This document shows, piece after piece, positions 5,129-32,000 of a DNA stretch of 64,000 bases; the stretch's first letter is position 1; the number at the start of each line of letters is the position of its first letter. Source of the stretch: Alphaproteobacteria bacterium (GTDB lineage: Bacteria; Pseudomonadota; Alphaproteobacteria; Rs-D84); assembly GCA_017618175.1 (NCBI GenBank), contig JAFZUT010000018.1, forward strand, positions 29,759 to 93,758. The letters are read 5' to 3'. The notes under the pieces are model-generated. The model was given only the letters and a program-made list of their open reading frames with translations, was not told the origin of the DNA and made no database searches. Made by a program: the position numbers and the translations under genes.

Positions 5129-5153
5129 ATCCCCACGTTTGTGGGGATTTTTT
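5129..5153. terminator. Bidirectional terminator between convergent yidC and the 112-aa ORF
   Basis: Hairpin ATCCCCACGTTTGTGGGGAT flanked by an A-run and a T-run. Confidence 0.7.
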
Positions 5154-5490
5154 AATCGCATAATTTTTTGTACAATGCATCGGGTGTTTGTATAAACGGT
5201 GCGTGCATACCAATTGCGCGCTTTGCCATATCAACGCAAGTCCACGCGTTGCGGGGATTAAAACCCGAATTTATTTCGCACGGCACATAAACAAATCGCC
5301 ACCCATATCGCCCCAGTATTCGTATATCGCGCGTGTGAATAAAAATTTCTGCCACGTTTTTATGTGATGAAAATTGATACATAATAAAACCATTTTTATC
5401 ACGCACCAAAACGGCGCAGTGTTTGAAATGCCTGCAAAATATATTTGGTAAAACTTTACTGGATTTCGGTGCAAACGCAATTATAACCAT
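5152..5490 (-). CDS. Hypothetical protein (112 aa)
   Basis: Lies 11 nt downstream of the preceding minus-strand ORF, so probably the same operon. No family recognised. The His...Cys arrangement (FKHCAVLV ... WTCVDMAKRAIG) only faintly resembles permuted papain-like amidases. Confidence 0.5.
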   Translation of the reverse strand: MVIIAFAPKSSKVLPNIFCRHFKHCAVLVRDKNGFIMYQFSSHKNVAEIFIHTRDIRILGRYGWRFVYVPCEINSGFNPRNAWTCVDMAKRAIGMHAPFIQTPDALYKKLCD

Positions 5491-5501
5491 CTTATTCTCC
5501 T

Positions 5502-5846
5502 TTATTCAATCCAACCTTTTTCGCGGGCGGCCGCATCCAAAGTATTCATCGCCGTATTCCAAATTGCGGCGGCGTGATTTTCCCGCCATATATATTGATG
5601 CGGCGCGCGCCGGCGATCACCAAATTCTTTCATAACGGCCAATTGGGCATCGTTCAGTTTCCCAGATAAATACAGTTTTGTAATCAATGTTTCAACGTCA
5701 ACCAATTCGCACACACGCCGCGTAGATGCCCGTCCATTGTTTTGCCCTATATCATTTCGCACCGATTTAGAATATAAAAACCAGAACCAAATTTGTTCTG
5801 CGTTTTGAAATTTTTCGGGTGTATAATTTGCTTGTATTTCCGTCAT
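5502..5846 (-). CDS. Hypothetical protein (114 aa)
   Basis: ORF with a good RBS (AAGGAG). No family recognised. Confidence 0.5.
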   Translation of the reverse strand: MTEIQANYTPEKFQNAEQIWFWFLYSKSVRNDIGQNNGRASTRRVCELVDVETLITKLYLSGKLNDAQLAVMKEFGDRRRAPHQYIWRENHAAAIWNTAMNTLDAAAREKGWIE

Positions 5847-6138: not shown

Positions 6139-8553
6139 CTATAACTCAATCGGCGGGAAACAATCACCACCCGCATCCGGACAGCAATTGAAACCTTGGT
6201 CACCCATATCGGTGTATGTTTCCCCCGGACAGCATCCATTCGCATCCGGTGCCGCCCCACCATCACACGTCACAACCGAGGTGCTTTGTGTTGTGGTGGA
6301 TGAACCAGACGAAGAAGTTTTCTTGAACGGATTTTGAATTGAACCATCGTCGTTATATTTCAATCCCAAAACCTGTTCATTATATGCCTGGGAACCTTGT
6401 GGGGTTTTGGTTGCCATCTGTTGTTGCTGGTTTTCAAACACCGCCTTTTGTTTTGCATTATTTATCGCATCATATGTCCCCATCGAACGGCAATAGAAAT
6501 CAACAGTATTGAAATTATAACCCCGCCGTTCCATTTCCGTTTTTTCATCGATGTCCGCCATATATGCCCCGGTTTCTTTACCATTAGTATCTTTAACAGG
6601 GGTGCAAAATTCACTTATATTTGCGACCAACATTGAACGAACCTGACCAATCAATTCTTCTGTCTTGGATGGATCTGTTTCCGTAAAGTCATCTTCTTTG
6701 CCATCACGCTTTGGTGAATCCGGATAAGGCAATATTGCGCATCTGCGTGTATCGCCATTGTCTTGACCACAGGTCACAAACAAATCAACAGGTGAAAACA
6801 CCGTGATACGTGTACCGGCGGCGATTGAAAAAGGCGGTGTGGTGTTATCCATTAAATCCACCAATAATTTTGTGGCAACATTGTTCCACGCGGTAATAAT
6901 CTCGTTTTTGGCCAATTCAGATGAACGCACGGTGCCGGTCTGCACAACCGTGTTGTTATCCAAGTCAATTTGATTCACAAATGCATCAGATATAGGTGCA
7001 ATCATATTCACGGCCGCCGGTACAATTGCGGTCAACATCGGCATAACAAATTGTTGCAGATAATCGGTGCTGCCGTGACCGGGAACGCCTTTGCGTCCCT
7101 GGGAATCAGCGGCAAACGGCTGTTTTTTATTATCTGTAAAGTTAAATTCCACACCATCGGGGCGAATAAACTGGTACCATTTTATTTCCATACGACCAAC
7201 CGCCTTGTACGGGCCGGGCAATTCGCCCGTCACATATCCCAACATCAATGTTCCGGTTGGAATAATAACCGTACGACCATTGTCGGAATAAACATTACGG
7301 TCAACCGTTGCGCGTACCGGCAAACCACTTTGCAATAATTTAGAATCTGCCTGAATATCCGATACAATTGTTGCCGGAATCGGTTTATATTGACGCAGAA
7401 CAAAACTGCGGTCATATGGACGTGTTCCAACAACACCTTTATCATTATCGTATCCAGTAAATTCAGTTGTCTTTTTGCGCGGTTTTAACCTAACACCCGG
7501 TTGACGTGCCCCCGGCATAGATGCCAATTGTGAAGCCAACATATCCATATTATCAATTTGTTCCGCACGGGTGACGGTGTGACGCGTTGATGTGCCGCCA
7601 CCAAGCCGGGGCAGGCGGTCCGTCACAACAAAACGTATGTGTTCTGCGTCCGATCCAATTTTGCGTGTTGGATTATTTATGTCCATAATATAACCCGTGT
7701 CTGCATTATACATTCCGGTCGGCGTGTCACAGTTCGTATCAGAAAACGGGTGATAATAATACGCGCCCCCCATTGGTTTTATCCAACCACTTTGAATACC
7801 GGCGGTGTTATATGCCGGAAACGCAAAGTCCGAACAATTATTTTTGAACATATTGCGCGGCACGGCAACCGGTGCATTGTATGTGGGTTCATTAAAACTG
7901 ATTGGTGCCGCAATATTGTTCAGGTCATCTTGAAAATCCGTATCGTAAGCCCAATCATCAATTAAAGGTTCCGGTTCTGGCTCCGGCTCTGGTTCTGGGG
8001 CGGGCGCATCCGTACGTGACATTGGTTTTTCGCGCGCCCCGATAACCAGTGTAATAGCCTTGGGGTTATCAACTTCGGCACCGGTTTCAAACGCACTCCA
8101 CGTAATTGCGACATTTGCGTCAGTGGTGTTAATTGGGTGTTCTGGTTGATATTTAATATTTATGACGCACGGGGCATTTTCTTCGATAATGGTCTGGTCA
8201 TTTTTACATGTTTCGGTTGCAGAAATTCCAACGGCATCATTTGTATCGCCTTCGACCCGCACAACAACATTTGTAATCTGAACGCGCGTATTTGCAGAAA
8301 CAAAAAATTCTGTTTCGCGAACTTCACCCACCACCGTATCAGACCAATCGACCGGCGCATCGGGCGTAATAATCAATTCCGGTGTGGCCGGCAAAGAATT
8401 CGGGTCAATCACAACGCGTTGTGCCTTGCGATTTCCAACCAATATCATCAGTAACACAACCACGATAATAATTGCCGCCGCCAACAATATCCATTGAACA
8501 TATTGTGGCGTAGTTTTGCGAAACTCCGAAAATTGTTCACCGATTTTACTCAT
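6139..8553 (-). CDS. virB10: VirB10/TrbI-like type IV secretion core protein, enlarged (804 aa) with extra N-terminal, proline-rich and Cys-rich C-terminal regions
   Basis: N-terminal TM (WILLAAAIIIVVVLLMILV) and a (PE)n linker (APAPEPEPEPEPEP). VirB10/TrbI-type beta-barrel region at about aa 385-592 (LPVRATVDRNVYSDNGRTVIIPTGTLMLGY...RMEIKWYQFIRPDGVEF...AGTRITVFSPVDL). A further 212 aa follow, ending CDGGAAPDANGCCPGETYTDMGDQGFNCCPDAGGDC. Confidence 0.8.
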   Translation of the reverse strand: MSKIGEQFSEFRKTTPQYVQWILLAAAIIIVVVLLMILVGNRKAQRVVIDPNSLPATPELIITPDAPVDWSDTVVGEVRETEFFVSANTRVQITNVVVRVEGDTNDAVGISATETCKNDQTIIEENAPCVINIKYQPEHPINTTDANVAITWSAFETGAEVDNPKAITLVIGAREKPMSRTDAPAPEPEPEPEPEPLIDDWAYDTDFQDDLNNIAAPISFNEPTYNAPVAVPRNMFKNNCSDFAFPAYNTAGIQSGWIKPMGGAYYYHPFSDTNCDTPTGMYNADTGYIMDINNPTRKIGSDAEHIRFVVTDRLPRLGGGTSTRHTVTRAEQIDNMDMLASQLASMPGARQPGVRLKPRKKTTEFTGYDNDKGVVGTRPYDRSFVLRQYKPIPATIVSDIQADSKLLQSGLPVRATVDRNVYSDNGRTVIIPTGTLMLGYVTGELPGPYKAVGRMEIKWYQFIRPDGVEFNFTDNKKQPFAADSQGRKGVPGHGSTDYLQQFVMPMLTAIVPAAVNMIAPISDAFVNQIDLDNNTVVQTGTVRSSELAKNEIITAWNNVATKLLVDLMDNTTPPFSIAAGTRITVFSPVDLFVTCGQDNGDTRRCAILPYPDSPKRDGKEDDFTETDPSKTEELIGQVRSMLVANISEFCTPVKDTNGKETGAYMADIDEKTEMERRGYNFNTVDFYCRSMGTYDAINNAKQKAVFENQQQQMATKTPQGSQAYNEQVLGLKYNDDGSIQNPFKKTSSSGSSTTTQSTSVVTCDGGAAPDANGCCPGETYTDMGDQGFNCCPDAGGDCFPPIEL

Positions 8554-8577: not shown

Positions 8578-10131
8578 CTATTGAATACGAACCACTTGGC
8601 AACTGGCACCACTGAACTTTAACAATTGGTCGCAAAGTTTTTGTGCCGTATCAATATCCGGCATAGGCCCAATGCGCAACCGATACAAACGTGCCGCCGA
8701 AGATGTCGCGCCCAATTCGCCGACACCCTGTTCATCAACCGCATAAAATACGCTGTCTTTATATTTGGTCAGCAATCCTTGACCATCATTGCCACTGAAA
8801 CGCGCCATCAAATCTGCCCAGTAATCGTCCAATGCCTTGACACTGGTGTCTGATTTTAACTCGACCGCAACACCGCCTTGGTTCGTGGTAATAAGCGGAA
8901 TATTAGATTGCGGTAAATATGCCCCCGCCGTATTGCGCACCGTTGGCAACATGGTCATGCCGTTTGATGTTCCGCCGGTCGGCGTTCCATACATATTCAT
9001 CATAATTGCCCCCGATGTTGCCGCCGGCATATTCATTTGCACGCCATTTGTGGCCGGCATAGTGTTGTTTATATATGTTGGTGTCGTTGTGTAATTACCA
9101 TAACCGTTTTGAATTGCAACCTGGTCCGCGGTGTACAGGACGTTGTTCAACGATTGTCCCGACAACATACTTTGCGCAACATTCGCCTCGGCCAAGGCCA
9201 TAACACTTGCGGTGTCGGCAATCAAGAACGGTTTAGAACGTTTTTTGATACAAACAATGCGTTGACCACTGCGCAGAACCATATCGCCAACGGCCTCGAC
9301 AATCAACAACCGTCCGTCTTCGCCATCTGTGCGGAAACCAACCGGCGATTCGCCACCTTCGACCAACAACGATACAACCGGGCGTTGGGTCATAGAAATA
9401 ACTTTGTCGCCGAAATCAATATATGTAAACACCCGGTCGCGCCACACGCGTTCCGGCGCAATCACATAATCATCCGGGTTTGGAACAAATATATCTAAAT
9501 CAAAACGAAATTCGGACGGGTCAATTTTCATTGTTTTAATCCAATCATAATCTTCGCCGTCAACACCAATGGTTCCGCTTTTTGCCGGTGTCTTTTTGAA
9601 TATGGAATTCATGGCCCCACCGGTTTGTGCACCCGCAACGGCCATAGACGCCGGCAACCGTGCGCCACCATCCAATACAACATCAACCTGGGAATATGTG
9701 ATTTCCGATGCGTTTGACGGTTCGCTGCGCAGATAGAAAGTATAAACATTCCCAGATTTCCCCGTCACAATCAGGTTTGTATCGGAACCCATATTATCGG
9801 CCGCGGGCGTAATATACATTGTGCGACCACCCTGGGTTGCGTCAATGGAAAAGAATCCGTCATTGCCGACGATGGCCTCTTCTATTTGTTCGCCAACCGG
9901 TAAATTCACCATGGTCACCATACCATTGCGCAATTTAACCGGTAACACGGTTCCCGCATCCCAAGATAATTGGGCATATCCGGGTTTAATACTGCCCGAT
10001 GCCATATTTGCATTTGGGTTGTCCCATGCACCTTGGACGCCATAGTTCACCGCACGTGCGTCAAACGCAACAAACGCGACAATCGCGCCGATTAAAGATA
10101 TCTTTCCCGCAAATGATTTTAACAGTGTCAT
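8578..10131 (-). CDS. virB9: VirB9/CagX/TrbG-like type IV secretion core protein fused to a C-terminal SPOR-like domain
   Basis: Signal peptide. VirB9 N-domain pattern (VKLRNGMVTMVNLPVGEQIEEAIVGN...TNLIVTGKSGNVYTFYLRS) and C-domain pattern (PERVWRDRVFTYIDFGD...LLIVEAVGDMVLRSGQRIVCIKK). A Met/Asn/Thr/Gly-rich linker leads to the last ~99 aa, which match the SPOR pattern (LYRLRIGPMPDIDTAQKLCDQLLKFSGASCQVVRI). Confidence 0.8.
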   Translation of the reverse strand: MTLLKSFAGKISLIGAIVAFVAFDARAVNYGVQGAWDNPNANMASGSIKPGYAQLSWDAGTVLPVKLRNGMVTMVNLPVGEQIEEAIVGNDGFFSIDATQGGRTMYITPAADNMGSDTNLIVTGKSGNVYTFYLRSEPSNASEITYSQVDVVLDGGARLPASMAVAGAQTGGAMNSIFKKTPAKSGTIGVDGEDYDWIKTMKIDPSEFRFDLDIFVPNPDDYVIAPERVWRDRVFTYIDFGDKVISMTQRPVVSLLVEGGESPVGFRTDGEDGRLLIVEAVGDMVLRSGQRIVCIKKRSKPFLIADTASVMALAEANVAQSMLSGQSLNNVLYTADQVAIQNGYGNYTTTPTYINNTMPATNGVQMNMPAATSGAIMMNMYGTPTGGTSNGMTMLPTVRNTAGAYLPQSNIPLITTNQGGVAVELKSDTSVKALDDYWADLMARFSGNDGQGLLTKYKDSVFYAVDEQGVGELGATSSAARLYRLRIGPMPDIDTAQKLCDQLLKFSGASCQVVRIQ

Positions 10132-10158: not shown

Positions 10159-10818
10159 TTACTGTTTATACACCGTATCCAGTGGATCTCCACCACCTTC
10201 GACCGTATACCGCGAAACTTTGACCCCCAATGGGTTGTTCAAACGTTCCGCCCATTTAATTTGTGCATCATCCGTCATAGTAATTCCAATCAGGATTGTA
10301 TAATCTTTTTTGTCGGTTTGTCCATTATTATCTGAGCAATAATATTCAAATTTTACCGTGTATTGGTTGTCGCGTAATTGCATTGGCCGACCGCGGAAAT
10401 TCACGACACAGTTAAATGCAACATCGGGATAATCACTCATAATCGCCTGGTACAGTCCCGTTTTCTGGAACGCTTTGTATACATCTGGTGTGGACCATGC
10501 GGCAACGACGCCGTTGCTGCTACCCCATTTTTGCCGCATTATCGACATATTTTGTTCAATCTCATTGCGCGCACGCACATATTCCATAACAAATGCCTGG
10601 CGATAAGCCTCAAGATTTTCGTCATTTGGTGGCAATTCAGTAATTTGAATAACCGATGCACCTTCGGGTTTTGACGTTATAAAGAACACTTCCGGCCGGT
10701 TCAGCGGAAACATTTTTTCCAATGTCATAAACATTACAAACAACACAACCACGCACCCGGCGAACACAAAAACAAGCAATCTTGATAATAAAACCGGCGG
10801 TTCTATGCGGTTTTGCAC
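10159..10818 (-). CDS. virB8: VirB8-like type IV secretion inner-membrane protein
   Basis: 219 aa, single N-terminal TM, then a VirB8-type periplasmic domain (AFVMEYVRARNEIE ... NNPLGVKVSRYTVE, compare the canonical NPLGFxVTSYR ending). Confidence 0.75.
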   Translation of the reverse strand: MQNRIEPPVLLSRLLVFVFAGCVVVLFVMFMTLEKMFPLNRPEVFFITSKPEGASVIQITELPPNDENLEAYRQAFVMEYVRARNEIEQNMSIMRQKWGSSNGVVAAWSTPDVYKAFQKTGLYQAIMSDYPDVAFNCVVNFRGRPMQLRDNQYTVKFEYYCSDNNGQTDKKDYTILIGITMTDDAQIKWAERLNNPLGVKVSRYTVEGGGDPLDTVYKQ

Positions 10819-11003: not shown

Positions 11004-11603
11004 TTACGTTAACGGCGTATAGCACTTATTATTGCCGCACGCGCCACTGCAACAAGATTCGTTTTCGCTGCAATATTCGCCATCAACTTTACAATTACTT
11101 GCCTTGCCGCTTGGACGGCTGCTGTCGAATCCATCGGGTCCATAAACGATGCGTCCATGCAAGTTCCACAATAAACAATTACCGGATTCATCCGCGTCAA
11201 AACAATTTGCATAAACGGCGGTTGTTTCCGTCATTTCCGGCAAATTGTCCACCGTACTGGATATTTCATCCATCTCGTTATATAAATCATCCATAGCCGG
11301 AACAATATCACCCGCGGTCACCAGGTCCCCTTCGTGGCCTGAGACAACACCGCCGTTTTCATCGTCATAGCCTGTTTCAAAATCAAAAATCCCACGTTCA
11401 CCGATTACACCGTTACCGGTCGTTGTATATGTGACAACGGTTTCACCGGGGGTTGATGCGTTTGTTCCCGCCGCAGGTATTTTATTTTGTTTCAATGCAT
11501 CTTGGGCATCTACATAATCTTTGGATGTAACCGTGGAACTTGTTGCAAATGCGTTTAATGCTAAAACGGATGCGATTGCACCAATGAATAATGCCTGTCT
11601 CAT
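11004..11603 (-). CDS. Secreted protein (199 aa) with DYVD...KQxKI N-terminal motif, NCLLWNL motif and knottin-pattern Cys tail
   Basis: The ORF track starts at 11768, but the ATG at 11603 has RBS AAAGGGAGG and yields a signal peptide (MRQALFIGAIASVLALNAFA). Paralogous to 25848..26360. C-terminus is CKVDGEYCSENESCCSGACGNNKC. Confidence 0.75.
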   Translation of the reverse strand: MRQALFIGAIASVLALNAFATSSTVTSKDYVDAQDALKQNKIPAAGTNASTPGETVVTYTTTGNGVIGERGIFDFETGYDDENGGVVSGHEGDLVTAGDIVPAMDDLYNEMDEISSTVDNLPEMTETTAVYANCFDADESGNCLLWNLHGRIVYGPDGFDSSRPSGKASNCKVDGEYCSENESCCSGACGNNKCYTPLT

Positions 11604-11757
11604 AATATTCCTCCCTTTTTCCTTGTCGTCATCCCGATATAAATCGGGATCCCTTCTTTTTTCCTGATTTATAGTGTAACAAAAAGGTACCTTTTTTGTG
11701 ACCAGGTACCTTATTTTGTAAGTAATTGATTTTACTGAATCGCATTTTCTAAAAAAA

Positions 11758-11791
11758 GTGATGGACAAAAACGTACGTTTTTGACCATCAC
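11758..11791 (-). terminator. 34-nt near-perfect palindrome followed by T7 on the minus strand (terminator or attenuator in the leader of the 11603 gene)
   Basis: GTGATGGACAAAAACGT/ACGTTTTTGACCATCAC with one mismatch. The T-run follows on the minus strand. Confidence 0.5.
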
Positions 11792-15399: not shown

Positions 15400-18300
15400 A
15401 TGGCAGTCATCCAGAAACTTAGAAAATCTTTTGGTAAAAGTTTTTTGCAAACTCCGCTTCCTGATTTAATAGAAATTCAATACAACTCCTATCGGGACTT
15501 CTTGCAGGCCGATGTTGCACCCCAAAATCGCAAAAATATGGGGTTGCAAAGTGTATTCACTTCTATGTTCCCAATCAAGGATTATGCGGGGGCCGCCGAA
15601 TTGGAATTTGTGGAATATAATTTGGAAAAACCTGCGTACAATGTGAAAGAATGCCTTGCACGCAAAATGACATATTCCAGCAAATTAAAATTAAAACTAA
15701 GATTGATTTTATGGGATGTCGCCGAAGACGGTAAAAAGTCTTTGCGTGATATCAAAGAACAAGAAATCTTTATGGGCGAAGTGCCGTTGATGACCGAACG
15801 CGGCAGTTTTATCGCATCGGGCGTGGAACGTGTTATCGTTTCACAAATGCATCGCGCCCAAGGTGTGGTTTTCGCAACAACCAAAGAAGCCAAAGTCGCC
15901 GGAAATCCTATTACGTATACCGCGCGTATCATCCCGGAACACGGTTCTTGGATTGATTTTGAAGAATCCAAGGGGATCATTTATGTTCGTATTGATCGCC
16001 GCCGCAAAGTACCGGCAACTGTGCTGTTGCGCTGTCTGCCGTGTGCGGAAGACGAAAAGAAATGGATTGCCGAACCACGCAAGACCACAATTCGCGGAAT
16101 GACAGATACAGAAATATTGTCTGTATTTTATAAACGCATCCCGTTAAAGACAAACGGCAAAATGTGGGTCGGCCAAACATCTGTATTTGAAGGTTTGGAC
16201 AAATATCGTTTGAATTATGATTTAATCAATCCCAAAGACAAAAAAGAATTGGCATCCAAGGGTGACCGTTTGAACGCAAAACGTTTGAACAAGATTGTCA
16301 CCGCGTCCAAGGAATTCGGTATTTTACCGGATGCGTTGGTTGGCGAATACTTGTTTGACCCAATTATGTCGGGTAATGACGTTATTTATCCGGTTGGTAC
16401 CGAAATCACCGAAGAGGTTTTGGCGGATATCGAAAAATTGGGTATCAAAGAAATATCTTTGATTTCGATTGATAACACAACAATAACCGCACATATGCGG
16501 AATACCCTTGTTGCGGATAAAACAACAAATCGTGAAGATGCATTGATTGAAATCTATAACATCATCCGTCCGGGTGAACGTCCAACGCTTGAGGCCGCAA
16601 TTAACTTGTTCCTGCGTCAAGGTTTTGAATCTGCATATTATGATTTGTCGCCGGTTGGTCGTTTCAAAATGAACAAGCGTTTGAAAATCGATTCTGGAAA
16701 AAAACCGGAAGATGAACGTTTATTGACCAAAAATGATTTCTTGGCGGTGTTGAAAACTTTGACCAACATTATCGACCACAAAGATACGATTGATGATATT
16801 GATAATTTGTCAAATCGTCGTGTTCGCACCGTTGGCGAATTGTTGGAACAAAATTTCCGTACCGGTATGGTTCGTATTGAACGTTTGGTTCGTGAAAGTT
16901 TGTCTTCACCGAATATTGCAACAATGCAACCCCAAGATGTTGTCAATGTAAATCCGTTGATGTCTTTGGTTGCAGAATTCTTGGGAACAAGTCAGTTGTC
17001 CCAATTTATGGACGCGTACAATCCGTTGTCTGAATTGGAACACAAACGTCGTATTTCTGCATTGGGTCCCGGTGGATTGAACCGTGAACGTGCCGGCATC
17101 GATGTCCGCGACGTTCATCCAACACACTATGGTCGTTTATGCCCAATTAACACACCCGAAGGCGCAAACATTGGTTTGATTAACCACCTTGCATCCTATG
17201 CGCGTGTGAACCCATACGGATTTATCGAAACGCCGTACTATGTTGTCGAAAAAAGTAAAATCACCGACAAAATGGTTTATTTGACCGCGGATGAAGAATT
17301 GGGCCATAAAATTGCCCAAGGTAACACCCCGACAAATGACAAAGGTGTTTTGACCGAAGAATTGGTTACGGCACGTGTTGACGGTGAATTTACCCGTGTT
17401 CCGCGTGAAGAAATCGACCTTATTGACGTCGAACCGCGCCAGGTTGTGTCCATTTCAACGGGACTTATTCCGTTCGTTGAAAACGACGACGCAAACCGTG
17501 CTTTGATGGGTTCAAATATGCAACGCCAGGCCGTTCCATTGATGCGTGTTCAAACGCCATTGGTTGGAACCGGCATTGAACGCGAAGTTGCACGTGATTC
17601 ACGTACCGGCAAGGTTGCAAAACACAGCGGTATTGTTGAATCTGCGGACGCAAAACGTATTGTGGTCAAATGTATGAACAGCCGCAATGTCGTGACCGGT
17701 GTTGATATTTACAATTTGGAAAAATATGAACGTTCAAACAACGACACAATTTTGCACCAAAAACCGTTGGTCAAGGCCGGCGACCGTATTTCTGCGGGTG
17801 ATATTATCGCAGACGGTTCGTCAATGAACTATGGTGAATTGGCGTTGGGTCGCAACGTGTTGGTGGCGTTTGTGCCGTGGCGTGGTTATAACTATGAAGA
17901 TTCTATTGTTATTTCCGAACGCATTTCCCGTGACGATGTTTATACATCTGTAAAAATCGTTGAAAAGGAAATCAAGGTTCGTGATACACAGTTAGGACCG
18001 GAAAGTTTGACACGCGACATTCCAAACGTTAGTGAAGAAGCATTAAAGAATTTGGATGAATCCGGTATTATCTATATCGGTGCGCGCGTGAAACAGGGCG
18101 ACATTTTGGTTGGTCACGTTTCGCCAAAATCTGAAACATTGCTTACCCCCGAAGAAGCGCTGTTGCGTAACATCTTTGGTGAAAAAGCGTTGAATGTCAA
18201 AGATACATCGTTGCGCGTTGGGCCGAACGAAGAAGGTACAGTTATCGGTGTGAACATCTTGACACGTCACGGTGTTAAAAAAGACGAACGCACCCAGATG

Positions 18301-19536
18301 ATTGAATTGGAAAAGATTGAAAAAATCAATAAAGACCGTGATGAAGAAATCCTTATTATCGAAAAGGGTTTCGCAGACCAGGTTTTCCAAATCGCCGAAG
18401 GTTATACAATCGAATCTGGCACCGGCAGTTTGAAACCATTCATTGGTAAAAAATTGACGGGCGAAGTGTTCGAAGGTATTAAACCGGTCGATGTTAAAAA
18501 ATTGGTCGTTTCTAACAAAGAAGCCCAGGCCAAGATTGATGAATTGCGTGAACAACATATCATTAAACTGAAACAGTTGAATGAAAATGCCGATCGCGAA
18601 ATTGAAAAGGCAACCGAAAGTAATTCTTTGAATGCGGGTGTCTTGAAAGAAGTCAAGGTCTATATCGCCCACAAGATGAAATTGCAACCGGGTGATAAAA
18701 TGGCGGGTCGTCACGGAAACAAGGGTATCGTTTCCCGCGTTGTTCCAATCGAAGATATGCCACATATGGAAGATGGAACCCCGGTCGACATCGTGCTGAA
18801 TCCGTTGGGTGTGCCAAGTCGTATGAACTTTGGGCAAATTTTGGAAACGCACCTTGGTATGGCGGCACGCAGCTTGGGTGAACAAATCGGTGCGGTTTTG
18901 GATGAAGTCAAACAAAAACGCGCGGTGACCGATGATTTGCGCGCGATTATGGGCAAGATTTATGGTAAAGAAACCGCCGAAAAATTGGCCAAAATGACAG
19001 ATACCGAGGTTCGCGCACATGCGGCGTTGTTGCGTGATGGTGTTCCAATGGCAACTCCGACATTTGACGGTGCAACCCCCGAAGATGTCCGCCGTATGCT
19101 GAAATTGGCAAAGTTGCCGGAAACCGGTCAATTCACACTGTATGACGGTGTGACGGGTGAAAAATTTGCTCGCCCGGTGACGGTTGGTGTTATGTATATG
19201 TTGAAATTGCACCACTTTGTCGATGAAAAGATTCACGCACGTTCCACCGCAAGTTATTCGTTGGTGACCCAGCAACCTTTGTCAGGTAAGGCGCATATGG
19301 GTGGTCAACGTTTGGGTGAAATGGAAGTTTGGGCGTTAGAGGCACACGGTGCCGCACACCTGTTGCGTGAAATGTTAACGGTGAAATCCGATGATATTAC
19401 CGGCCGAAACAAGATGTATGAAGCCATCATTTCGGGCAGTGATGATATTCAAACCGGAACACCCGAGGCATTTAATGTGTTCGTTCGCGAACTGCGCGGA
19501 TTGGGGTTGGCGATGACGCCAAAGAAGATTGATTAG
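15400..19536 (+). CDS. rpoB: DNA-directed RNA polymerase subunit beta
   Basis: 1378-aa ORF with full-length RpoB conservation. Confidence 0.99.
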   Translation: MAVIQKLRKSFGKSFLQTPLPDLIEIQYNSYRDFLQADVAPQNRKNMGLQSVFTSMFPIKDYAGAAELEFVEYNLEKPAYNVKECLARKMTYSSKLKLKLRLILWDVAEDGKKSLRDIKEQEIFMGEVPLMTERGSFIASGVERVIVSQMHRAQGVVFATTKEAKVAGNPITYTARIIPEHGSWIDFEESKGIIYVRIDRRRKVPATVLLRCLPCAEDEKKWIAEPRKTTIRGMTDTEILSVFYKRIPLKTNGKMWVGQTSVFEGLDKYRLNYDLINPKDKKELASKGDRLNAKRLNKIVTASKEFGILPDALVGEYLFDPIMSGNDVIYPVGTEITEEVLADIEKLGIKEISLISIDNTTITAHMRNTLVADKTTNREDALIEIYNIIRPGERPTLEAAINLFLRQGFESAYYDLSPVGRFKMNKRLKIDSGKKPEDERLLTKNDFLAVLKTLTNIIDHKDTIDDIDNLSNRRVRTVGELLEQNFRTGMVRIERLVRESLSSPNIATMQPQDVVNVNPLMSLVAEFLGTSQLSQFMDAYNPLSELEHKRRISALGPGGLNRERAGIDVRDVHPTHYGRLCPINTPEGANIGLINHLASYARVNPYGFIETPYYVVEKSKITDKMVYLTADEELGHKIAQGNTPTNDKGVLTEELVTARVDGEFTRVPREEIDLIDVEPRQVVSISTGLIPFVENDDANRALMGSNMQRQAVPLMRVQTPLVGTGIEREVARDSRTGKVAKHSGIVESADAKRIVVKCMNSRNVVTGVDIYNLEKYERSNNDTILHQKPLVKAGDRISAGDIIADGSSMNYGELALGRNVLVAFVPWRGYNYEDSIVISERISRDDVYTSVKIVEKEIKVRDTQLGPESLTRDIPNVSEEALKNLDESGIIYIGARVKQGDILVGHVSPKSETLLTPEEALLRNIFGEKALNVKDTSLRVGPNEEGTVIGVNILTRHGVKKDERTQMIELEKIEKINKDRDEEILIIEKGFADQVFQIAEGYTIESGTGSLKPFIGKKLTGEVFEGIKPVDVKKLVVSNKEAQAKIDELREQHIIKLKQLNENADREIEKATESNSLNAGVLKEVKVYIAHKMKLQPGDKMAGRHGNKGIVSRVVPIEDMPHMEDGTPVDIVLNPLGVPSRMNFGQILETHLGMAARSLGEQIGAVLDEVKQKRAVTDDLRAIMGKIYGKETAEKLAKMTDTEVRAHAALLRDGVPMATPTFDGATPEDVRRMLKLAKLPETGQFTLYDGVTGEKFARPVTVGVMYMLKLHHFVDEKIHARSTASYSLVTQQPLSGKAHMGGQRLGEMEVWALEAHGAAHLLREMLTVKSDDITGRNKMYEAIISGSDDIQTGTPEAFNVFVRELRGLGLAMTPKKID

Positions 19537-19619
19537 TGGATAGTGTAAGTGGTTAGTGGTTGGTAATTTTTACCAACCACGGCCAACACTAACACTAAAC
19601 ACTAACACTAAACACTAAG
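19533..19619. repeat. TTAGTG(G)/CACTAA(A) short tandem repeats forming a long imperfect inverted repeat in the rpoB-rpoC spacer
   Basis: TTAGTGG ATAGTG TAAGTGG TTAGTGG TTGGTAA-TTTTT-ACCAACCAC..CACTAA CACTAAA CACTAA CACTAAA CACTAAG, running up to the rpoC RBS. Confidence 0.85.
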
Positions 19620-19635
19620 TAAGGAGCTTAGAAAA

Positions 19636-22600
19636 ATGGCAAATATGTTGCAAAAGATATTTGGACAAATTGAAACCAGGGAACAATTTGATGCGTTGCG
19701 TGTGACAATTGCGTCACCCGAAGAAATTCTTTCTTGGTCCCATGGCGAGGTGACAAAACCGGAAACCATAAACTATCATTCTTTGAAACCGGAAACCGAT
19801 GGGTTGTTCTGCCAGAAAATTTTTGGACCTGTCAAAGATTATGAATGCGCATGCGGAAAATATAAAAGAATCAAATTCCGCGGTGTTATCTGTGAACGTT
19901 GCGGGGTCGAGGTTGGTTCTTCTTCGGTTCGCCGTGAACGTATGGGACACATTAAATTGGCGATGCCGGTTGCGCACACATGGTTTTTGCGTGAAGGTAA
20001 AATCGCAACATTGTTAAATAACCTGTCGCAAAAGAAATTGGACCAAGTTGTATCTTATGATGCCTATATCGTTATTGAACCGGGTTTAACAAATTTGAAA
20101 CAATACGATGTCATCAGTGAAGATGAATATCGCGCCGCGGTCGAAGAATTTGGACCGGATGCATTCCGCGTGGGTATTGGTGCCGAAGGTGTTCGCAGCA
20201 TTATTGCAAACCTTGATATGGGCGATGAAAGAACACGTCTGCGTGCGGAATTGGCCGAAACAAAATCCGAAGCAAAACGCAAGGCGATTATCAAACAATT
20301 GAAATTGGTCGAAGCGTTCTTGGATTCTAAAACCGAACCGGCGTGGATGTTGCCGGATATTATCCCGGTTATTCCACCAGATATGCGCCCCCTTGTCACA
20401 CTGGATGCGGGACATGTTGCGGCGTCTGATTTGAACGATTTATATCGTCGCGTTATTATCCGTAACAATCGTTTGAAACGATTTATGGAAATGCATGCAC
20501 CGGAAATTATCATCCGCAATGAAAAGCGTATGTTACAAGAAGCGGTTGATTCCTTGTTCGATAATGAACACAAGGCACGTCCGATGGTTTCACAAAACCG
20601 CAGACCGCTTAAATCTTTGTCGGGGTCATTGCGTGGTAAATCCGGTCGTTTCCGTATGAATATGTTGGGTAAACGTGTGGATTATTCGGGCCGCAGTGTT
20701 ATTGTGTCTGGTCCGTCATTAAAAATGCACCAGGTCGGTTTGCCCAAGGCAATGGCGTTGGAATTGTTCAAACCGTTCGTGTTTGCGCGCCTTATGGCGG
20801 GTGATTATGCCAACACATTAAAGACCGCGCGTAAAATGGTTGAAAACGGCGAAGATATTGTTTGGGAAATCTTGGAAAAGGTTATTCATGAACATCCGGT
20901 CTTGTTGAACCGTGCGCCGTCTTTGCACCGTTTGTCATTGTTGGCGTTTGAACCGGTTTTGATTGAAGGCAAGGCCATTCGTCTGCACCCGTTGGTATGT
21001 AAGGGATTTAACGCCGACTTTGACGGTGACCAGATGGCTGTGCACGTGCCGATTTCATTAGAGGCACAATTAGAAGCACGCACATTGATGTTATCAACAA
21101 ATAACATTTTGTCGCCGGCAAATGGGGAACCTATGACGGTGCCTTCGCAAGACATGGTTTTGGGTATTTACTATATTTCTTTGATAAACGGTGAACATAC
21201 CGAAAAATCACCGCGTTTCAGTGGAATGGACGAAGTCGAATTGGCGTTGGAAAACAAAACAATCACTTTGCATACACCAATTGTCGCACGCATCAATGGC
21301 AAAAATTACAAAACAACCGCCGGTCGTATGATTATTGGTCAGTTATTGCCGAAATCGGAAAATATGCCGTTTGATTTGGTGAACAAGGTTATGGGTCAGC
21401 CGGAAATTAAAAAATTATTGTCCACCACTTACGAACGTTGTGGCGATAAAGCAATGATTATGTTGGCCGATGCTTTGAAGAATACCGGATTTGAACAGGC
21501 GGCACGCAGTGGTATTTCCATTGGGTTTGACGATGTTGTTATTCCAGAAGAAAAAGAAAAGATGATTGCCGATGCAGAAAAGTCCGCGGCGGATATCGAA
21601 GAACAATATCAAAACGGTTTGTTGTCATCGGGTGAACGTTACAACAAATTGATTGACATGTGGCAAAGAACCACAGACAACCTTGGAAAAATGGCATATG
21701 CCGCGTTGGGTCGGTCAACCGGGGATGATTGGAATTCTATTTATATGATGGCGGATTCCAAGGCACGTGGTTCGAAAAACCAGATTCAACAGTTGGCGGG
21801 TATGCGTGGTATGATGCAGAAGCCCGATGGTTCGATTATCGAAGTTCCAATTATTTCAAACTTTAAGGAAGGTTTGACAATGGCGGAATACTTTACATCA
21901 ACCCACGGTGCGCGTAAAGGTTTGTCTGATACCGCGTTGAAAACGGCCCAGGCGGGTTATTTGACACGTCGTTTGGTCGATTTGGCGTTGAACACCGTTA
22001 TTACCGAACACGATTGCGGAACAACCGAATATATTACCGCAAAACCGGTGTACCAAGGCAGCACACTGTCCGTGCCATTGGGCGATGTCGTTTTGGGTCG
22101 TACCGCGGCGCATGATATTATTCACCCAATTACCAAGGAAGTTATCGTGCCGGCCGGCGAATTGATTACCAAGGTTGCCGCACGTCAAATTAATGAATCT
22201 GGACTGCCAAGCGTTGATGTTCGCAGCGTTTTGACATGTTGCAGTGATGGGTTGTGCGCAAAATGCTATGGTATGGATTTGTCACGTCAGTCTTTGGTCC
22301 ATGTTGGCGAAGCGGTCGGTGTTGTTGCCGGTCAATCCATTGGTGAACCGGGTACTCAGTTGACGTTGCGTACTTTCCACATTGGTGGTATTGCGTCCGG
22401 CGGTGCCGAAAGTCATTATATTGAAGCCCCAGTTGCCGGTAAAATCAAATTATCCGGTATAAACACAATCAAAAATTCTGCGGGTCGTGTGGTCGTTTTG
22501 TCGCGTAATGGGAAAATTGCGGTTACATCACCCAAGGGCGAAGAATTGTTCAGTTGCGGTTTGCCATATGCGTCTATGTTGATTGTCAACGACGGCGATA

Positions 22601-23745
22601 CGGTTGAAAAGGGTGCCAAGGTTGCAGAATGGGATCCGTATTCCAACACGATTATCGCGGAAAAAGACGGTATTGTGAAGTTTAATGATTTGGTTGAAAA
22701 CGTTTCTTTCCAAGAAGAAGTCGATTCTACAACCGGTATCATTTCCCGCAAGGTTATCAATTGGAAAACAAACACCAAAAAGGCGATGCAACCGGCAATT
22801 CGTTTGGTAAATGAAAACGGCGATGTATTGTCGTTGGGTGGCAAAAAGGTTGCTGAATACCTGTTGCCAATACATTCTGTTTTGAATGTTGCAGACGGTG
22901 CAACCGTTGCGGCGGGCGATATTTTGGCGCGCATTCCGGTCCAGGCGAAACGTACGGGCGATATTACGGGTGGTTTGCCACGCGTAGAAGAATTGTTAGA
23001 GGTTCGCCGTCCTGCGAATCCTGCGTTGTTGGCGGAAATTGATGGAACGGTTGAATTGGAAGATGCAAAATCCAAAATCATCGTTCGCATTGAACCAGAC
23101 GATGGAACCGCACCGGTTGAATACGCGGTACCAAAGGGAACCAACCTTTTGGTGCGCAGCGGTGATGTTGTTAAAAAGGCCGATAAATTGGTCGATGGTG
23201 ATCCGGTTCCGCAAGATATCTTGCGCATATTGGGTCAAAAGGCATTGGCAACATTTATGGTCGAACAAATTCAACAGGTTTATCGCCTTCAGGGTGTGTC
23301 CATCAACGACAAGCATATTGAAATCTTGATTCGTGAAATGACACGTCGTGTTGAAATCACAGACCCGGGTGACACAGGATTCCTTATGGGACATGTTGTT
23401 GACCGTGTTGATTTCGAAGAAGAAAATGCACGCGTTGTTCATGACGGTGGTCGTCCGGCGGTTGCGTCCCAGGTTTTGGTTGGACTTACCCGCGCGTCAC
23501 TTACCACACGTTCGTTCATTTCCAACGCATCGTTCCAACAAACCACCAAGGTTTTGGTTGATGCGGCAATCAATGGTTCGACCGATAAATTGGTTGGTAT
23601 AAACGAAAACTTGATTGTTGGTCGTTTGATACCGATTGGAACCGGTGCATATGTCCGTCGCGTTCGTGAAATTGCGCGGGCCGAAGAAAAGGCAGAAAAA
23701 TTGGCACGCGAAGGTGGTGATCATCAACAATTGTTGGATTTGTAA
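19636..23745 (+). CDS. rpoC: DNA-directed RNA polymerase subunit beta'
   Basis: 1369-aa ORF with the NADFDGD catalytic motif and Zn-binding Cys cluster. RBS AAGGAG. Confidence 0.99.
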   Translation: MANMLQKIFGQIETREQFDALRVTIASPEEILSWSHGEVTKPETINYHSLKPETDGLFCQKIFGPVKDYECACGKYKRIKFRGVICERCGVEVGSSSVRRERMGHIKLAMPVAHTWFLREGKIATLLNNLSQKKLDQVVSYDAYIVIEPGLTNLKQYDVISEDEYRAAVEEFGPDAFRVGIGAEGVRSIIANLDMGDERTRLRAELAETKSEAKRKAIIKQLKLVEAFLDSKTEPAWMLPDIIPVIPPDMRPLVTLDAGHVAASDLNDLYRRVIIRNNRLKRFMEMHAPEIIIRNEKRMLQEAVDSLFDNEHKARPMVSQNRRPLKSLSGSLRGKSGRFRMNMLGKRVDYSGRSVIVSGPSLKMHQVGLPKAMALELFKPFVFARLMAGDYANTLKTARKMVENGEDIVWEILEKVIHEHPVLLNRAPSLHRLSLLAFEPVLIEGKAIRLHPLVCKGFNADFDGDQMAVHVPISLEAQLEARTLMLSTNNILSPANGEPMTVPSQDMVLGIYYISLINGEHTEKSPRFSGMDEVELALENKTITLHTPIVARINGKNYKTTAGRMIIGQLLPKSENMPFDLVNKVMGQPEIKKLLSTTYERCGDKAMIMLADALKNTGFEQAARSGISIGFDDVVIPEEKEKMIADAEKSAADIEEQYQNGLLSSGERYNKLIDMWQRTTDNLGKMAYAALGRSTGDDWNSIYMMADSKARGSKNQIQQLAGMRGMMQKPDGSIIEVPIISNFKEGLTMAEYFTSTHGARKGLSDTALKTAQAGYLTRRLVDLALNTVITEHDCGTTEYITAKPVYQGSTLSVPLGDVVLGRTAAHDIIHPITKEVIVPAGELITKVAARQINESGLPSVDVRSVLTCCSDGLCAKCYGMDLSRQSLVHVGEAVGVVAGQSIGEPGTQLTLRTFHIGGIASGGAESHYIEAPVAGKIKLSGINTIKNSAGRVVVLSRNGKIAVTSPKGEELFSCGLPYASMLIVNDGDTVEKGAKVAEWDPYSNTIIAEKDGIVKFNDLVENVSFQEEVDSTTGIISRKVINWKTNTKKAMQPAIRLVNENGDVLSLGGKKVAEYLLPIHSVLNVADGATVAAGDILARIPVQAKRTGDITGGLPRVEELLEVRRPANPALLAEIDGTVELEDAKSKIIVRIEPDDGTAPVEYAVPKGTNLLVRSGDVVKKADKLVDGDPVPQDILRILGQKALATFMVEQIQQVYRLQGVSINDKHIEILIREMTRRVEITDPGDTGFLMGHVVDRVDFEEENARVVHDGGRPAVASQVLVGLTRASLTTRSFISNASFQQTTKVLVDAAINGSTDKLVGINENLIVGRLIPIGTGAYVRRVREIARAEEKAEKLAREGGDHQQLLDL

Positions 23746-29038: not shown

Positions 29039-32000
29039 ATGAAAAGACTTGCTATATTTATTGGTGGCCTGCTTGTGTTGCCCGCATTTGCTGAGGTTGC
29101 ACCTGTTTTATATGAAGATATTGAATACGCGGATGTTGTGTATGATGAATACGGCAATCCGGTGTATTACACCGATTATACGGACGCGGATTTAACCCCG
29201 GAAATGGACGAAAATGTGACGATGCCTTCTGTTCCTGCGTCACGCAGTGGATCCGCATCGCGTGCAAACACTAACCGCACAACAATCGGTCGAACGGTAC
29301 CCACAACCAATGCGGGTGCGGCCACGGGTCGTGCGTCTGCGGCAAATTCGTCACGTGTGGTGGCGGCGCGTACAACATCGAATTCTTCCCCACGTTCAAA
29401 CACCAATTCGCGCAGTGTTTCATCGCGTACAACATCAACCACGGCAACGCGCACAACAACCGATACAGATGCCACGCGGGCGGCGGCAACCCGTGCAACG
29501 GGCGGGGCGGGGCGTACCGCAACATCAACCCGCACAGGCGCATCCGGTGGTGCGACGGTGGCACGAACAACAACATCGCGTAATGCGACATCATCGCGCA
29601 CGGCAACGACCGGTGCACGTGTAAATCGTGCATCGACCAACGCGGCGGTGGGGGTGACCGGCAATGTTATATCTGCTGCGCCCATCCGGGTAACCACGGC
29701 CAGCGGCACAACAAACGCGGATTACCTTACCGACAGTGGCCAAAGATTATATAACGCAAACGGTGCACGTGTCAGTGTTGCGAACCGTGTTCCAACAATT
29801 CGTATGTCATCGGTCAGTGGCATTTCCACCGATACCACATCGGTCAGTGCGACCACCCCCGCAGAAATGGACGAATTGGCGGAATTAACCGATTATTGCA
29901 AGGCCCAATATGCGGCGTGCATGGATAATTATTGTAACGTCTTGGACGACAACCAAGGCCGTTGCAGTTGCAGTGCCAATATTAAAAATTATGCCAAGGC
30001 CGAGGCCGCATTGAAACAGGCAACCGAAGAATTGCAAGAGGTTGCACAAAAGATTCAATACATTGGTTTGTCCGCGCGCGAGGTTGAAACCCTGTTCACC
30101 CAGACCGAGGCGGAATTGAAAATGCAATCCACCACCGATACCAGTCAGTTAAAGACCAGTCTGGACAAGATAAAAGATATGATTATCGAGGTTCAATCCG
30201 GCAACGCATCATCTTCGAATTCGTCTTTCCTTTCGTTTGATTTATCGGGTCTGTTGGACTTTACTATTGACAGCACCGGTTTTGATTTATCTTCGTTCTT
30301 GGGTGGTTTTGGCACGAATTCAAACGGTATCAATAACCAACGCGGCGAAGAATTGTTCAAAACCGCAACAAATCGTTGCAAGGCGAACGTCTTAAAGGCC
30401 TGCACGGCCCAGGGTGTTGACGGTTCATTGGTTACGAACGCGTATGATTTAGAAATTGACCGCGAATGTATCGCCTATGAACGCAGCCTGAACGATTCCA
30501 ACGACCAAATGGTTGCAACGGTGCGCAACGCCAAAAGCGTTCTGCAAAAGGCGCGCCTGTTGGTGGAACAATCGAAAAACGAATACGATATGCGCGGATG
30601 CATAAACGCACTTGATTCCTGTATGCAGGATGAATACGTTTGCGGCACGGATTATGAAAAGTGCCTTGATCCGTCCGGCCGCTATATCGTGAACGGCGAA
30701 ATAGTTATTGGTACCGACCCGGGTCGCGCGGTGAATGGCATTGGAGACGCCACAAATGCCACGGGTGTGTTGGACGGCGATATATGCAGTATGAATTTGT
30801 ATAACGTTTGGAATTATGGTTCATCCACGGCGGGCCAAACAACGGCCGGTTGCAAAAACGCATGGAACAGTTACAGCCTGAACGGTTCCAACAATGGTAA
30901 TTTGGCGGATTATATAAACACAACCGTGACGGCAACTGCGGCCAAGAACGGCGGTTTGGGTATGTCTGAATTTATCCAAAACAAAATCGGTTATGTTGAT
31001 GGCGACAAAAATTATGGTATGTGCATATCGGTGCTGAATAAATGCCAAGATTACACATACACCGGCAAGGGTTCTTCGCGTAAATATAACCCCGTGAACG
31101 AGGTTGTAAAACAATACTTGGATCGTATGTTGATTCAAATCAAGGCAAAGCAAGACCAAATCTTGGCGGAACACGCGGAAAGTTGTATAACGGACGTGAC
31201 AACATGCCTGTCCCAGAACAATTATCCGTTTGATGAGGCATCAACGAACCAGGTTCAGGCGAATATCGCAATCAACGCGTGCCGTTCAACAATCGTGACA
31301 TGTATGTCGGTGAATGGTTATTCGGTTGAAAACCCGACCCCATCTGATTTATCACGTTGGATTTGTGGTATTACCACCGGCAGTGTCGATTGCATCCCAA
31401 ATTCCGGCGGCGGTTCCGGGGGGGGTGAGACAACAACCTATACAGTTACATACAATTGCAACGGTGGAACTGGGACGGCACCGGCGTCACAAACGGTTCA
31501 ATATAACACTCAATTCATGACACGTGCCAACACATGTACCAAACCGAGTGCAAGTCAAACGTTTGATGGGTGGCTTGTGGGAAGTACGTCATCTGATAGT
31601 GTTGTTTGGCTTGCAAATAGGACATATACATACAATTATCAATCTGATAAAACACTTTATGCGCGTTGGACTACGGTGACGGGTTCTTGCACTCCAACGA
31701 CACTTGGAAATTGTAACGAAACAACGTGCGGAAGTTTGGGGGGAAATTACATATGGTGTACTACCGGGTCTAGCAGACCGTCTTGTAAATTAAGAACAGA
31801 TTGTCCGGCCGCATGCAGCGCGACCAATTTGCCGGCATGCGACAGTGATGAGTGTGGGTTGTACAATGGTAATTGGTGCGCATCGGGAACAACGATTAAC
31901 TTCTCATGCAGTGATACTGCAGGTGCCTGTTGTTTGGGCAATCCAACCGGTTGCACGCGCAATCAGTGTGATGCCCTGAATTATAAATGGTGTGTCCAAA

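Follow-up and report, generated by a model that had tools for sequence, protein, structure and literature searches.

Our analysis of a 64,000-nucleotide stretch of DNA from an Alphaproteobacteria bacterium (assembly GCA_017618175.1, contig JAFZUT010000018.1, positions 29,759 to 93,758 of the forward strand; hereafter, the window) supports the conclusion that the C-terminal ~100 amino acids (aa) of a VirB9 homologue encoded there form, by profile score and predicted fold, a SPOR-family domain. In its best-supported function, to which we would assign a probability of roughly 55%, this VirB9-attached domain would anchor the core complex of a type IV secretion system (T4SS) to the cell's own sacculus. 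A fusion of VirB9 to a C-terminal SPOR-like domain had been proposed from an earlier inspection of the same DNA (the original prediction), and is borne out here by Pfam CagX and SPOR matches above their cutoffs, by the VirB8 and VirB10 genes on the two flanks, and by the SPOR domain of RlpA as the top fold match. T4SS core complexes are usually described as free-standing rings of VirB7, VirB9 and VirB10, and how VirB-type systems are fixed and positioned in the cell wall is poorly understood. Here, a core subunit and a wall-binding module, both already known, are joined in the manner that other envelope machines have made familiar, in an architecture that is undescribed in the literature we searched, yet abundant and partly machine-labelled in the databases.

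Architecture of the VirB9-SPOR protein

The open reading frame (ORF) comprises the 517 codons of the VirB9 homologue plus the stop codon. Its parts, in window coordinates, are as follows:

8578..10131 (-): whole VirB9-SPOR gene (ORF list; Pfam CagX and SPOR; full-length relatives)
10051..10131 (-): predicted Sec signal peptide, aa 1-27 (MTLLKSFAGKISLIGAIVAFVAFDARA, cleaved before VNY), read by inspection of the sequence
9241..9972 (-): VirB9/CagX region with the N- and C-terminal VirB9 domains, aa 54-297 (Pfam PF03524)
9109..9231 (-): predicted-helical segment after the C-terminal VirB9 domain, aa 301-341 (AlphaFold2, AF2, and conservation)
8887..9108 (-): low-complexity flexible linker rich in T, N, G, M and P, aa 342-415, 74 aa (composition, identity and predicted local distance difference test, pLDDT)
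8581..8886 (-): C-terminal SPOR-family domain, aa 416-517, 102 aa (Pfam SPOR, AF2, Foldseek)

The signal peptide ends, by inspection, in an A-R-A cleavage motif and has no lipobox Cys, which suggests that the protein is a soluble periplasmic or outer membrane-associated one. The match to Pfam CagX/VirB9 (PF03524; aa 54-297, E 2e-20, 73.9 bits) exceeds the gathering threshold of 34.2, spans profile positions 5-197 of 198, and covers both VirB9 domains. AF2 returned a confident beta-sandwich at aa 52-153, and Cys294, at the end of the C-terminal VirB9 domain, is invariant in a 50-sequence alignment. In the full-length AF2 model (overall pLDDT 51), the C-terminal VirB9 domain and the linker came out poorly, and we took nothing but domain boundaries from it.

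Between the VirB9 domains and the tail, the original prediction had seen a ~110-aa Met/Asn/Thr/Gly-rich linker. A low-complexity stretch of 74 aa (342-415) does fit this description, whereas aa 301-341 are conserved and predicted to be helical, with helices at 309-321 and 330-341 in the AF2 model (low confidence), a mean identity of 85% among relatives, and a ratio of nonsynonymous to synonymous substitution rates (dN/dS) of 0.036. The linker proper (T14 N10 G9 M8 P7) varies in both sequence and length, with 51% identity, 19 insertion columns, pLDDT <50 and dN/dS of 0.15. In the SPOR-family domain, the predicted elements are beta1 (421-428), alpha1 (431-445), a short helix (455-460), beta2 (461-467), beta3 (481-490), alpha2 (493-507) and beta4 (512-515). 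The last 99 codons (8581..8877, aa 419-517) translate as 'GGVAVELKSD...CQVVRIQ', in full agreement with the residues quoted in the original prediction.

Evidence that the tail is a SPOR-family domain

In the full protein, the Pfam SPOR profile (PF05036) matched aa 475-515 with 23.3 bits, above the gathering cutoff of 21, and the isolated 99-aa tail, for which the original prediction had suggested a search with a SPOR profile hidden Markov model, reached 27.0 bits (E 5.6e-6). When we gathered 25 divergent VirB9 relatives with a homologous tail, whose mutual identity is 20-39%, 16 of these tails independently matched Pfam SPOR at E<=0.01, and no other family was matched. The precomputed Pfam column of the database under-reports SPOR, as illustrated by the homologue P0277, which scored 23.1 bits though that column omits SPOR.

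The comparison of folds suggested by the original prediction also gave the expected ribonucleoprotein (RNP)-like arrangement. Our AF2 model of the domain (aa 412-517, 29-sequence alignment) had a pLDDT of 77 and a predicted template-modelling (TM) score of 0.69, with elements in the order beta-alpha-(short helix)-beta-beta-alpha-beta. In a Foldseek search of this model against PDB, ranks 1 and 2 were taken by the RlpA SPOR domain of Pseudomonas aeruginosa (6i09_A and 6i05; probability 1.00, TM 0.72 and 0.63 normalised by target), one of the two structures being a complex with denuded glycan. DedD SPOR was matched as well (probability 0.98), and the remaining matches were generic ferredoxin-like folds with TM of 0.25-0.38. 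Short motifs are shared too: the beta3-alpha2 signature 'h-R-h-R-h-G-P ... A ... L' aligns with FtsN, CwlC and RlpA, and the beta1 motif 'hxh[E/Q]hG[S/A]' mirrors 'V-Q-x-G-[AS]-F'.

Residues of the putative binding face

Three sets of residues deserve separate mention:

8674..8682 (-): Arg484-Leu-Arg486 on beta3, basic-patch equivalent (alignments with RlpA and FtsN)
8860..8862 (-): Glu424 in beta1, counterpart of FtsN Q251 and RlpA Q270 (hhalign against FtsN, CwlC and RlpA)
8599..8634 (-): the pair Cys500 (alpha2) and Cys511 (start of beta4); no other column is invariant in 25 divergent tails or in further alignments

The SPOR sequences of FtsN and CwlC were verified, and part of that of RlpA was recovered, through PDB searches, and these were used as references for profile alignment with hhalign. 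The beta3-alpha2 half aligns confidently ('RLYRLRIGP..' with FtsN 'GWNRVVIGP..' and RlpA 'LHRVRLGP'), so that Arg484 corresponds to RlpA R309 and FtsN R285, and Arg486 to RlpA R311; both arginines are invariant in the 50-sequence alignment. In RlpA, the basic patch made of R309 and R311, with R302, binds the lactyl carboxylate of N-acetylmuramic acid (MurNAc) (PMC6895207). The register of beta1 comes from a relaxed local hhalign alignment (72 columns, E 4.7e-5, probability 68%) that lays 'VAVELKSD' on 'WMVQCGSF' and so puts Glu424 at the position of FtsN Q251 and RlpA Q270. The Gln found there in characterised SPOR domains is the one highly conserved SPOR side chain and forms hydrogen bonds with the MurNAc lactyl and the N-acetylglucosamine (GlcNAc) N-acetyl groups, and its equivalents Q251 of FtsN and Q351 of DamX matter for the septal localisation of these proteins (PMC6895207). 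As for the two invariant cysteines, they likely form an intradomain disulfide; in the hhalign alignment Cys511 corresponds to FtsN C312, whereas its partner Cys500 differs from FtsN C252.

Distribution, conservation and selection

A search with the full-length protein returned 1010 database clusters at E<=0.001, and the 120 relatives listed all have at least 94% query coverage and at least 70% identity. When one genome per GTDB species was scanned, 290 genomes carried the fusion. Details were taken from the best 80 of these 290, which are rumen/gut metagenome-assembled genomes, many of them named Candidatus Enterousia, and in 80/80 the match runs through residue 517. With the same uninterrupted ORF in 80/80 independent genomes, an artefact of gene fusion or of assembly can be excluded. 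An exhaustive search through 1.84 billion representatives matched 480 proteins, and the closest relatives were those with the tail (34 of the top 150), which was always located at the extreme C-terminus. A further search with distant fusions gave 1548 clusters, with proteins of 500-660 aa from uncultured Alphaproteobacteria, and in this second set the domain was present in all 112 newly retrieved proteins. Taken over 272 domain matches, the domain lies at the extreme C-terminus in 270, as well as in every Enterousia-like protein retrieved, and by this sequence evidence the lineage retains it universally. No match to the domain came up when 72,556 plasmids (PLSDB) were searched with tblastn. 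The word-indexed search that we ran with a 95-aa domain alignment produced 4 weak matches and missed the family itself, including thousands of true members recovered by full-length queries; it says nothing on where else this SPOR subtype occurs.

The original prediction knew of no such fusion among described VirB9 proteins. Full-text literature searches for SPOR with VirB9 or type IV secretion found no paper that describes it, and in this sense the statement stands; the architecture is, however, common, as the 290 species-representative genomes indicate, and about a fifth of the second set already carry precomputed PF05036+PF03524 labels, which makes the fusion visible in databases, although unnamed. 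In the source records, the protein goes by no other names than 'TrbG/VirB9 family P-type conjugative transfer protein' and 'ComB9'.

Conservation is higher in VirB9 than in the neighbouring genes. Region by region, mean identity to the window protein is highest in the C-terminal VirB9 domain (0.97; aa 196-300), followed by SPOR (0.86), the N-terminal domain (0.81) and the linker (0.51). The dN/dS values, which are rough because dS is near saturation, are 0.008 for the C-terminal VirB9 domain, 0.037 for SPOR, 0.053 for the N-terminal domain and 0.151 for the linker (Nei-Gojobori, 381 pairs). Judging from these substitution patterns, the SPOR domain is under strong purifying selection. Enterousia genomes measure ~0.75-1.0 Mb and are without the TCA cycle, respiration and standard nutrient transporters (PMC12306168).

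A separate group of ~24 distant long VirB9 representatives (P0159 and about 23 others) has an extension of another kind, rich in Ala and Pro, with an invariant C-x10-C at its end as well; one example is found on the 731-kb megaplasmid of Microvirga sp. VF16 (NZ_CP069357.1, 678511-680160). Their tails have no Pfam SPOR match, and hhalign relates only the last 34 aa to the SPOR-like family, at 93% probability. These tails may represent a degenerate or ancestral form of the SPOR-like tail, and were left out of the SPOR-fusion count and treated as possibly related.

Proposed function and alternative explanations

On the wall-tether reading, the gene product would act as the VirB9 subunit of a chromosomal T4SS in rumen/gut Candidatus Enterousia and, once exported by means of its signal peptide, would use its two VirB9 domains to build the outer membrane core complex with VirB10, as expected from the family. 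In this family, the C-terminal VirB9 domain occupies the rim of the core complex, below the outer membrane. From there, the helical segment, the ~74-aa flexible linker and the disulfide-stapled SPOR domain would extend, a composition expected of a tether that hangs down to the wall, and the length of the linker would allow the SPOR domain to make contact with the peptidoglycan. With a dozen or more VirB9 copies in the ring, a tether to the sacculus would be multivalent, and it would stabilise the secretion machine. If the SPOR preference for amidase-processed glycan were kept, assembly would in addition be biased to division sites and hence to new poles, a targeting that we consider plausible. 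Peptidoglycan binding, the chemistry of the ligand and septal or polar targeting are all points that we infer. Enzymes of peptidoglycan turnover do exist in this reduced genome, as the window encodes an MltB-like lytic transglycosylase (SLT_2, 41578-42609 (+), E 5e-89) and a phage-lysozyme-family protein (56744-57247 (-)); genes for cell-wall amidases, the enzymes that would produce denuded glycan, were sought among the window ORFs scanned, and none was found.

Several observations weigh against this reading. Only positions 34/36-76, the second half of the 76-position Pfam SPOR profile, align significantly, and Foldseek gives no more than a modest E-value (1.4e-3). When PDB chains were searched by sequence and by profile with the C-terminal domain, noise was all that came back and no SPOR entry was among it, which is the reason why a comparison of folds was needed; such a failure is unsurprising, because SPOR domains share <20% identity (bioRxiv 10.1101/2022.07.01.498525). 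On the binding face, position 424 is E or D in ~270 family members (120 Enterousia-like proteins, 112 of the second set, and representatives) and Q in one, this single member ('IAVQLG') supporting the register of the alignment. A carboxylate at 424 would be unable to donate the hydrogen bonds of the Gln and would come to lie against that of the lactyl group. Missing as well is an aromatic residue behind 'GA' (the equivalent of RlpA F274). In view of the changed Gln, the missing aromatic and the family-specific Cys pair, we treat the domain as a divergent SPOR-family member and do not ascribe to it a canonical specificity for denuded glycan.

The explanation that best survives beside a wall tether, and that we regard as possible if somewhat doubtful, is that a SPOR-derived domain has been repurposed, either for protein-protein contacts within the T4SS, whether as an additional ring in the periplasm or by docking to a partner such as VirB8, VirB10 or some further protein, or for a chemically distinct polymer of the envelope, such as an N-deacetylated or otherwise modified glycan. 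The Q-to-E/D change is family-wide, with a single Q exception; the N-terminal half has diverged beyond detection by Pfam and contains insertions (102 aa for a 76-position profile); the invariant Cys pair is family-specific and unlike that of FtsN; and the distant long VirB9s, like that of Microvirga, keep only the last beta-alpha-beta and the Cys pair, with no Pfam SPOR signal. Together, these features suggest selection on something besides the canonical binding face. In simulations cited in PMC6895207, N-deacetylated glycan was rejected, being unable to bond to the Gln, and position 424 therefore plausibly tunes specificity. Repurposing is harder to reconcile with the retention on beta3 of the Arg-x-Arg patch for the lactyl carboxylate, and with a long disordered linker, which would suit a diffuse target such as the wall better than a fixed ring; moreover, no partner or co-varying neighbour was identified, and identity among SPOR domains is in any case <20%.

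It is also conceivable, albeit unlikely, that a SPOR module of altered specificity, with the Gln changed, the Arg patch retained and a new disulfide, reads a certain maturation state or chemistry of the cell's own peptidoglycan, be it the wall of the septum or new pole or a modified glycan rejected by canonical SPOR domains. In this way, it would pre-install a T4SS that is core to this genome-reduced gut lineage where cells divide, with no VirB1-type hydrolase dedicated to the task. If true, no earlier T4SS would have a core channel subunit that itself carries the positional cue, and the system would gain in interest were either a changed specificity of the SPOR domain or an installation at division sites demonstrated. 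A natural and conserved Gln-to-Glu/Asp variant could, in addition, show how SPOR specificity is tuned.

We find it improbable that the C-terminal extension is threaded to the cell surface, where a SPOR-like adhesin would bind the glycans of partner or prey cells in the gut (exposed peptidoglycan or related GlcNAc polymers). The T/N/G/P-rich linker does resemble extracellular linkers, a disulfide-stapled domain fits an oxidising exterior, and surface exposure of the VirB9 C-terminal domain has reportedly been proposed for TraO of pKM101. The host lineage is, furthermore, a reduced one, and a ~0.9 Mb genome without respiration or standard nutrient transporters suggests dependence on other cells (PMC12306168). 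However, nothing here points to a passage of the domain through the outer membrane, and VirB9 lies below that membrane in current structures of the core complex. All characterised SPOR domains work in the periplasm or wall of the cell that produces them (PMC6895207).

Finally, the idea that the domain is no SPOR at all, being a generic ferredoxin-like beta-alpha-beta-beta-alpha-beta fold with a marginal false-positive Pfam match, could appeal to a score just 2-6 bits over the gathering threshold across half of the profile, to negative PDB sequence-profile searches and to the many ferredoxin-like folds in the Foldseek list at E ~1e-2, but is highly improbable given that 16 independent divergent homologues match SPOR and no other family, that the two best structural matches are SPOR with TM clearly above all non-SPOR folds, that the beta3-alpha2 signature aligns with FtsN, CwlC and RlpA, and that the beta1 motif mirrors the SPOR motif, one family member even having the Q.

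Gene neighbourhood and type of secretion system

The VirB9-SPOR gene lies between two other genes of the core complex:

10159..10818 (-): VirB8 homologue, adjoining upstream (Pfam VirB8, E 2.7e-15; syntenic in 79/80 loci)
6139..8553 (-): VirB10/TrbI homologue, 804 aa, adjoining downstream (Pfam TrbI, E 6e-16; syntenic in 80/80 loci)

This cluster sits in the core chromosome, with yidC on one side and, on the other, tRNA-Trp, a nusG homologue and the long ORFs at 15400-23745, which by size and position are presumably rpoB and rpoC. Roughly 60-70 of the 80 loci retain the order nusG .. virB8-virB9-virB10-orf114-orf112 .. yidC, and this conserved chromosomal synteny indicates a vertically inherited, chromosomal T4SS. 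All three core proteins score far below NCBIfam equivalog cutoffs (for VirB10, those of the VirB10 and ComB10 profiles). Since the window VirB9 reaches 46.8 bits against the TIGR02781 equivalog, far under its cutoff of 217.7, it is a distant member of the VirB9 family and not the conjugative equivalog, and the database name 'P-type conjugative transfer protein' is over-specific on this sequence evidence; from such an annotation, one can see neither that a further domain is present nor that the system is chromosomal and non-conjugative.

The search of the window for a second copy of the SPOR-like domain found none. A VirB7-like lipoprotein (lipobox with P[ILV]NK) was likewise sought in the window without a find, and no counterpart is present next to virB8. 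In a related lineage (GCA_017507765.1, L081), the cluster consists of VirB4, five unannotated ORFs, VirB8, a 66-aa lipoprotein, a second VirB8, VirB9-SPOR, VirB10 and VirB11. The lipoprotein (L081 9031-9231), located between the two VirB8 paralogues, has the lipobox LAVSC and an extra Cys-x-Cys, and is without P[ILV]NK. VirB10 in this lineage (L081 11614-20109) is 2831 aa long, with at least 19 beta-flower repeats (Bflower_2, Bflower, DUF3659) before the TrbI domain.

Some observations on the surroundings are recorded here for completeness. The window VirB10 (6139-8553 (-)) contains a (PE)n repeat and, beyond the TrbI domain, a Cys-rich C-terminal tail (..CDGGAAPDANGCCPGETYTDMGDQGFNCCPDAGGDCF..). 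Directly downstream of virB10, two ORFs of 114 and 112 aa (5502-5846 (-) and 5152-5490 (-)) are conserved in 70/80 loci and gave no Pfam or NCBIfam match; they may encode unrecognised T4SS-associated proteins. Upstream of virB8, a 254-aa ORF (11004-11768 (-)) shows what seems to be a signal-like hydrophobic segment and ends in a Cys-rich region of knottin/conotoxin type, with weak Pfam matches only, and its detection in only 6/80 loci suggests that the slot beside the T4SS genes is hypervariable. Elsewhere in the window, a 517-aa protein (40015-41568 (+)) has a match (E 1.8e-9) to Pom, the family of Protochlamydia outer membrane proteins, and a 1053-aa protein (29039-32200 (+)) has a weak match to the Listeria-Bacteroides repeat; it is possible that these are surface proteins of a host- or partner-dependent bacterium.

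Comparison with known systems

Among T4SSs, the Rickettsiales vir homologue (rvh) system is similar in being chromosomal, vertically inherited and found in genome-reduced Alphaproteobacteria. The order of rvh islet C, B8a-B7-B8b-B9b-B10-B11 (PMC2653234), is matched by the second half of the cluster in the related lineage (L081/L082), where the 66-aa lipoprotein occupies the position of VirB7. The window, in contrast, has a single virB8 and neither virB11 nor virD4 adjoining virB10, and the description in PMC2653234 mentions no SPOR tail on RvhB9. In L081, the five ORFs after VirB4 have no Pfam VirB6/TrbL match and at most one N-terminal hydrophobic segment, which is not the tandem polytopic VirB6 array of rvh. 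For this reason we note the resemblance and do not file the system as rvh.

With canonical VirB9, TrbG, TraO and CagX, the protein shares a signal peptide, both VirB9 domains and a gene between virB8 and virB10. Canonical members, however, end shortly after the C-terminal domain, and tail-less relatives measure ~250-350 aa, whereas the window protein adds ~215 aa (helical segment, linker and SPOR) and is encoded by a chromosomal, syntenic gene and not on a plasmid or an integrative and conjugative element.

Likeness to the SPOR domains of FtsN, DamX, DedD, RlpA and CwlC lies in the over-threshold profile score, the RNP-like predicted fold, the Arg-x-Arg patch on beta3 and a putative periplasmic disulfide that involves the equivalent of FtsN C312. 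The domain differs from them in that the hallmark beta1 Gln is Glu/Asp, no aromatic follows G-A/S, the second Cys of the disulfide comes from alpha2 and not from beta1 as in FtsN, and extra loops and a short helix bring its length to 102 aa. Known SPOR domains are attached to a divisome protein, an amidase or a lytic transglycosylase, while this one is attached to a secretion-channel subunit.

Other envelope machines also tie an outer membrane complex to the sacculus. In the Dot/Icm core complex of Legionella, DotK is an OmpA-like lipoprotein. In the type II secretion system, GspB/OutB anchors the secretin to peptidoglycan (PMC9239104). Both are separate accessory proteins with other peptidoglycan-binding folds, whereas here the module, of the SPOR family, is contained within the core subunit itself.

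A parallel can also be drawn with PilQ, whose AMIN domains recruit the pilus machine to septal and polar peptidoglycan and for which a 'pre-installation' without dedicated wall hydrolases has been described (PMC5285504, PMC10653833). It provides a precedent for an outer membrane channel subunit that uses a wall module for anchoring and for recruitment to division sites. Both machines span the envelope, and in both a subunit of the outer membrane channel has acquired a module from the cell-division toolkit, one that binds peptidoglycan in PilQ and would be expected to do so in VirB9. The two differ in machine (type IVa pilus or T4SS), in subunit (secretin or VirB9), in module (AMIN or SPOR) and in its placement, which is N-terminal in PilQ and C-terminal on a long linker in VirB9. 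A putative wall module built into VirB9, and conserved in hundreds of species of a gut and rumen lineage that is uncultured yet abundant and has genomes of ~0.9 Mb, would offer, in parallel to PilQ-AMIN, a simple and testable mechanism for the anchoring and positioning of these secretion systems.

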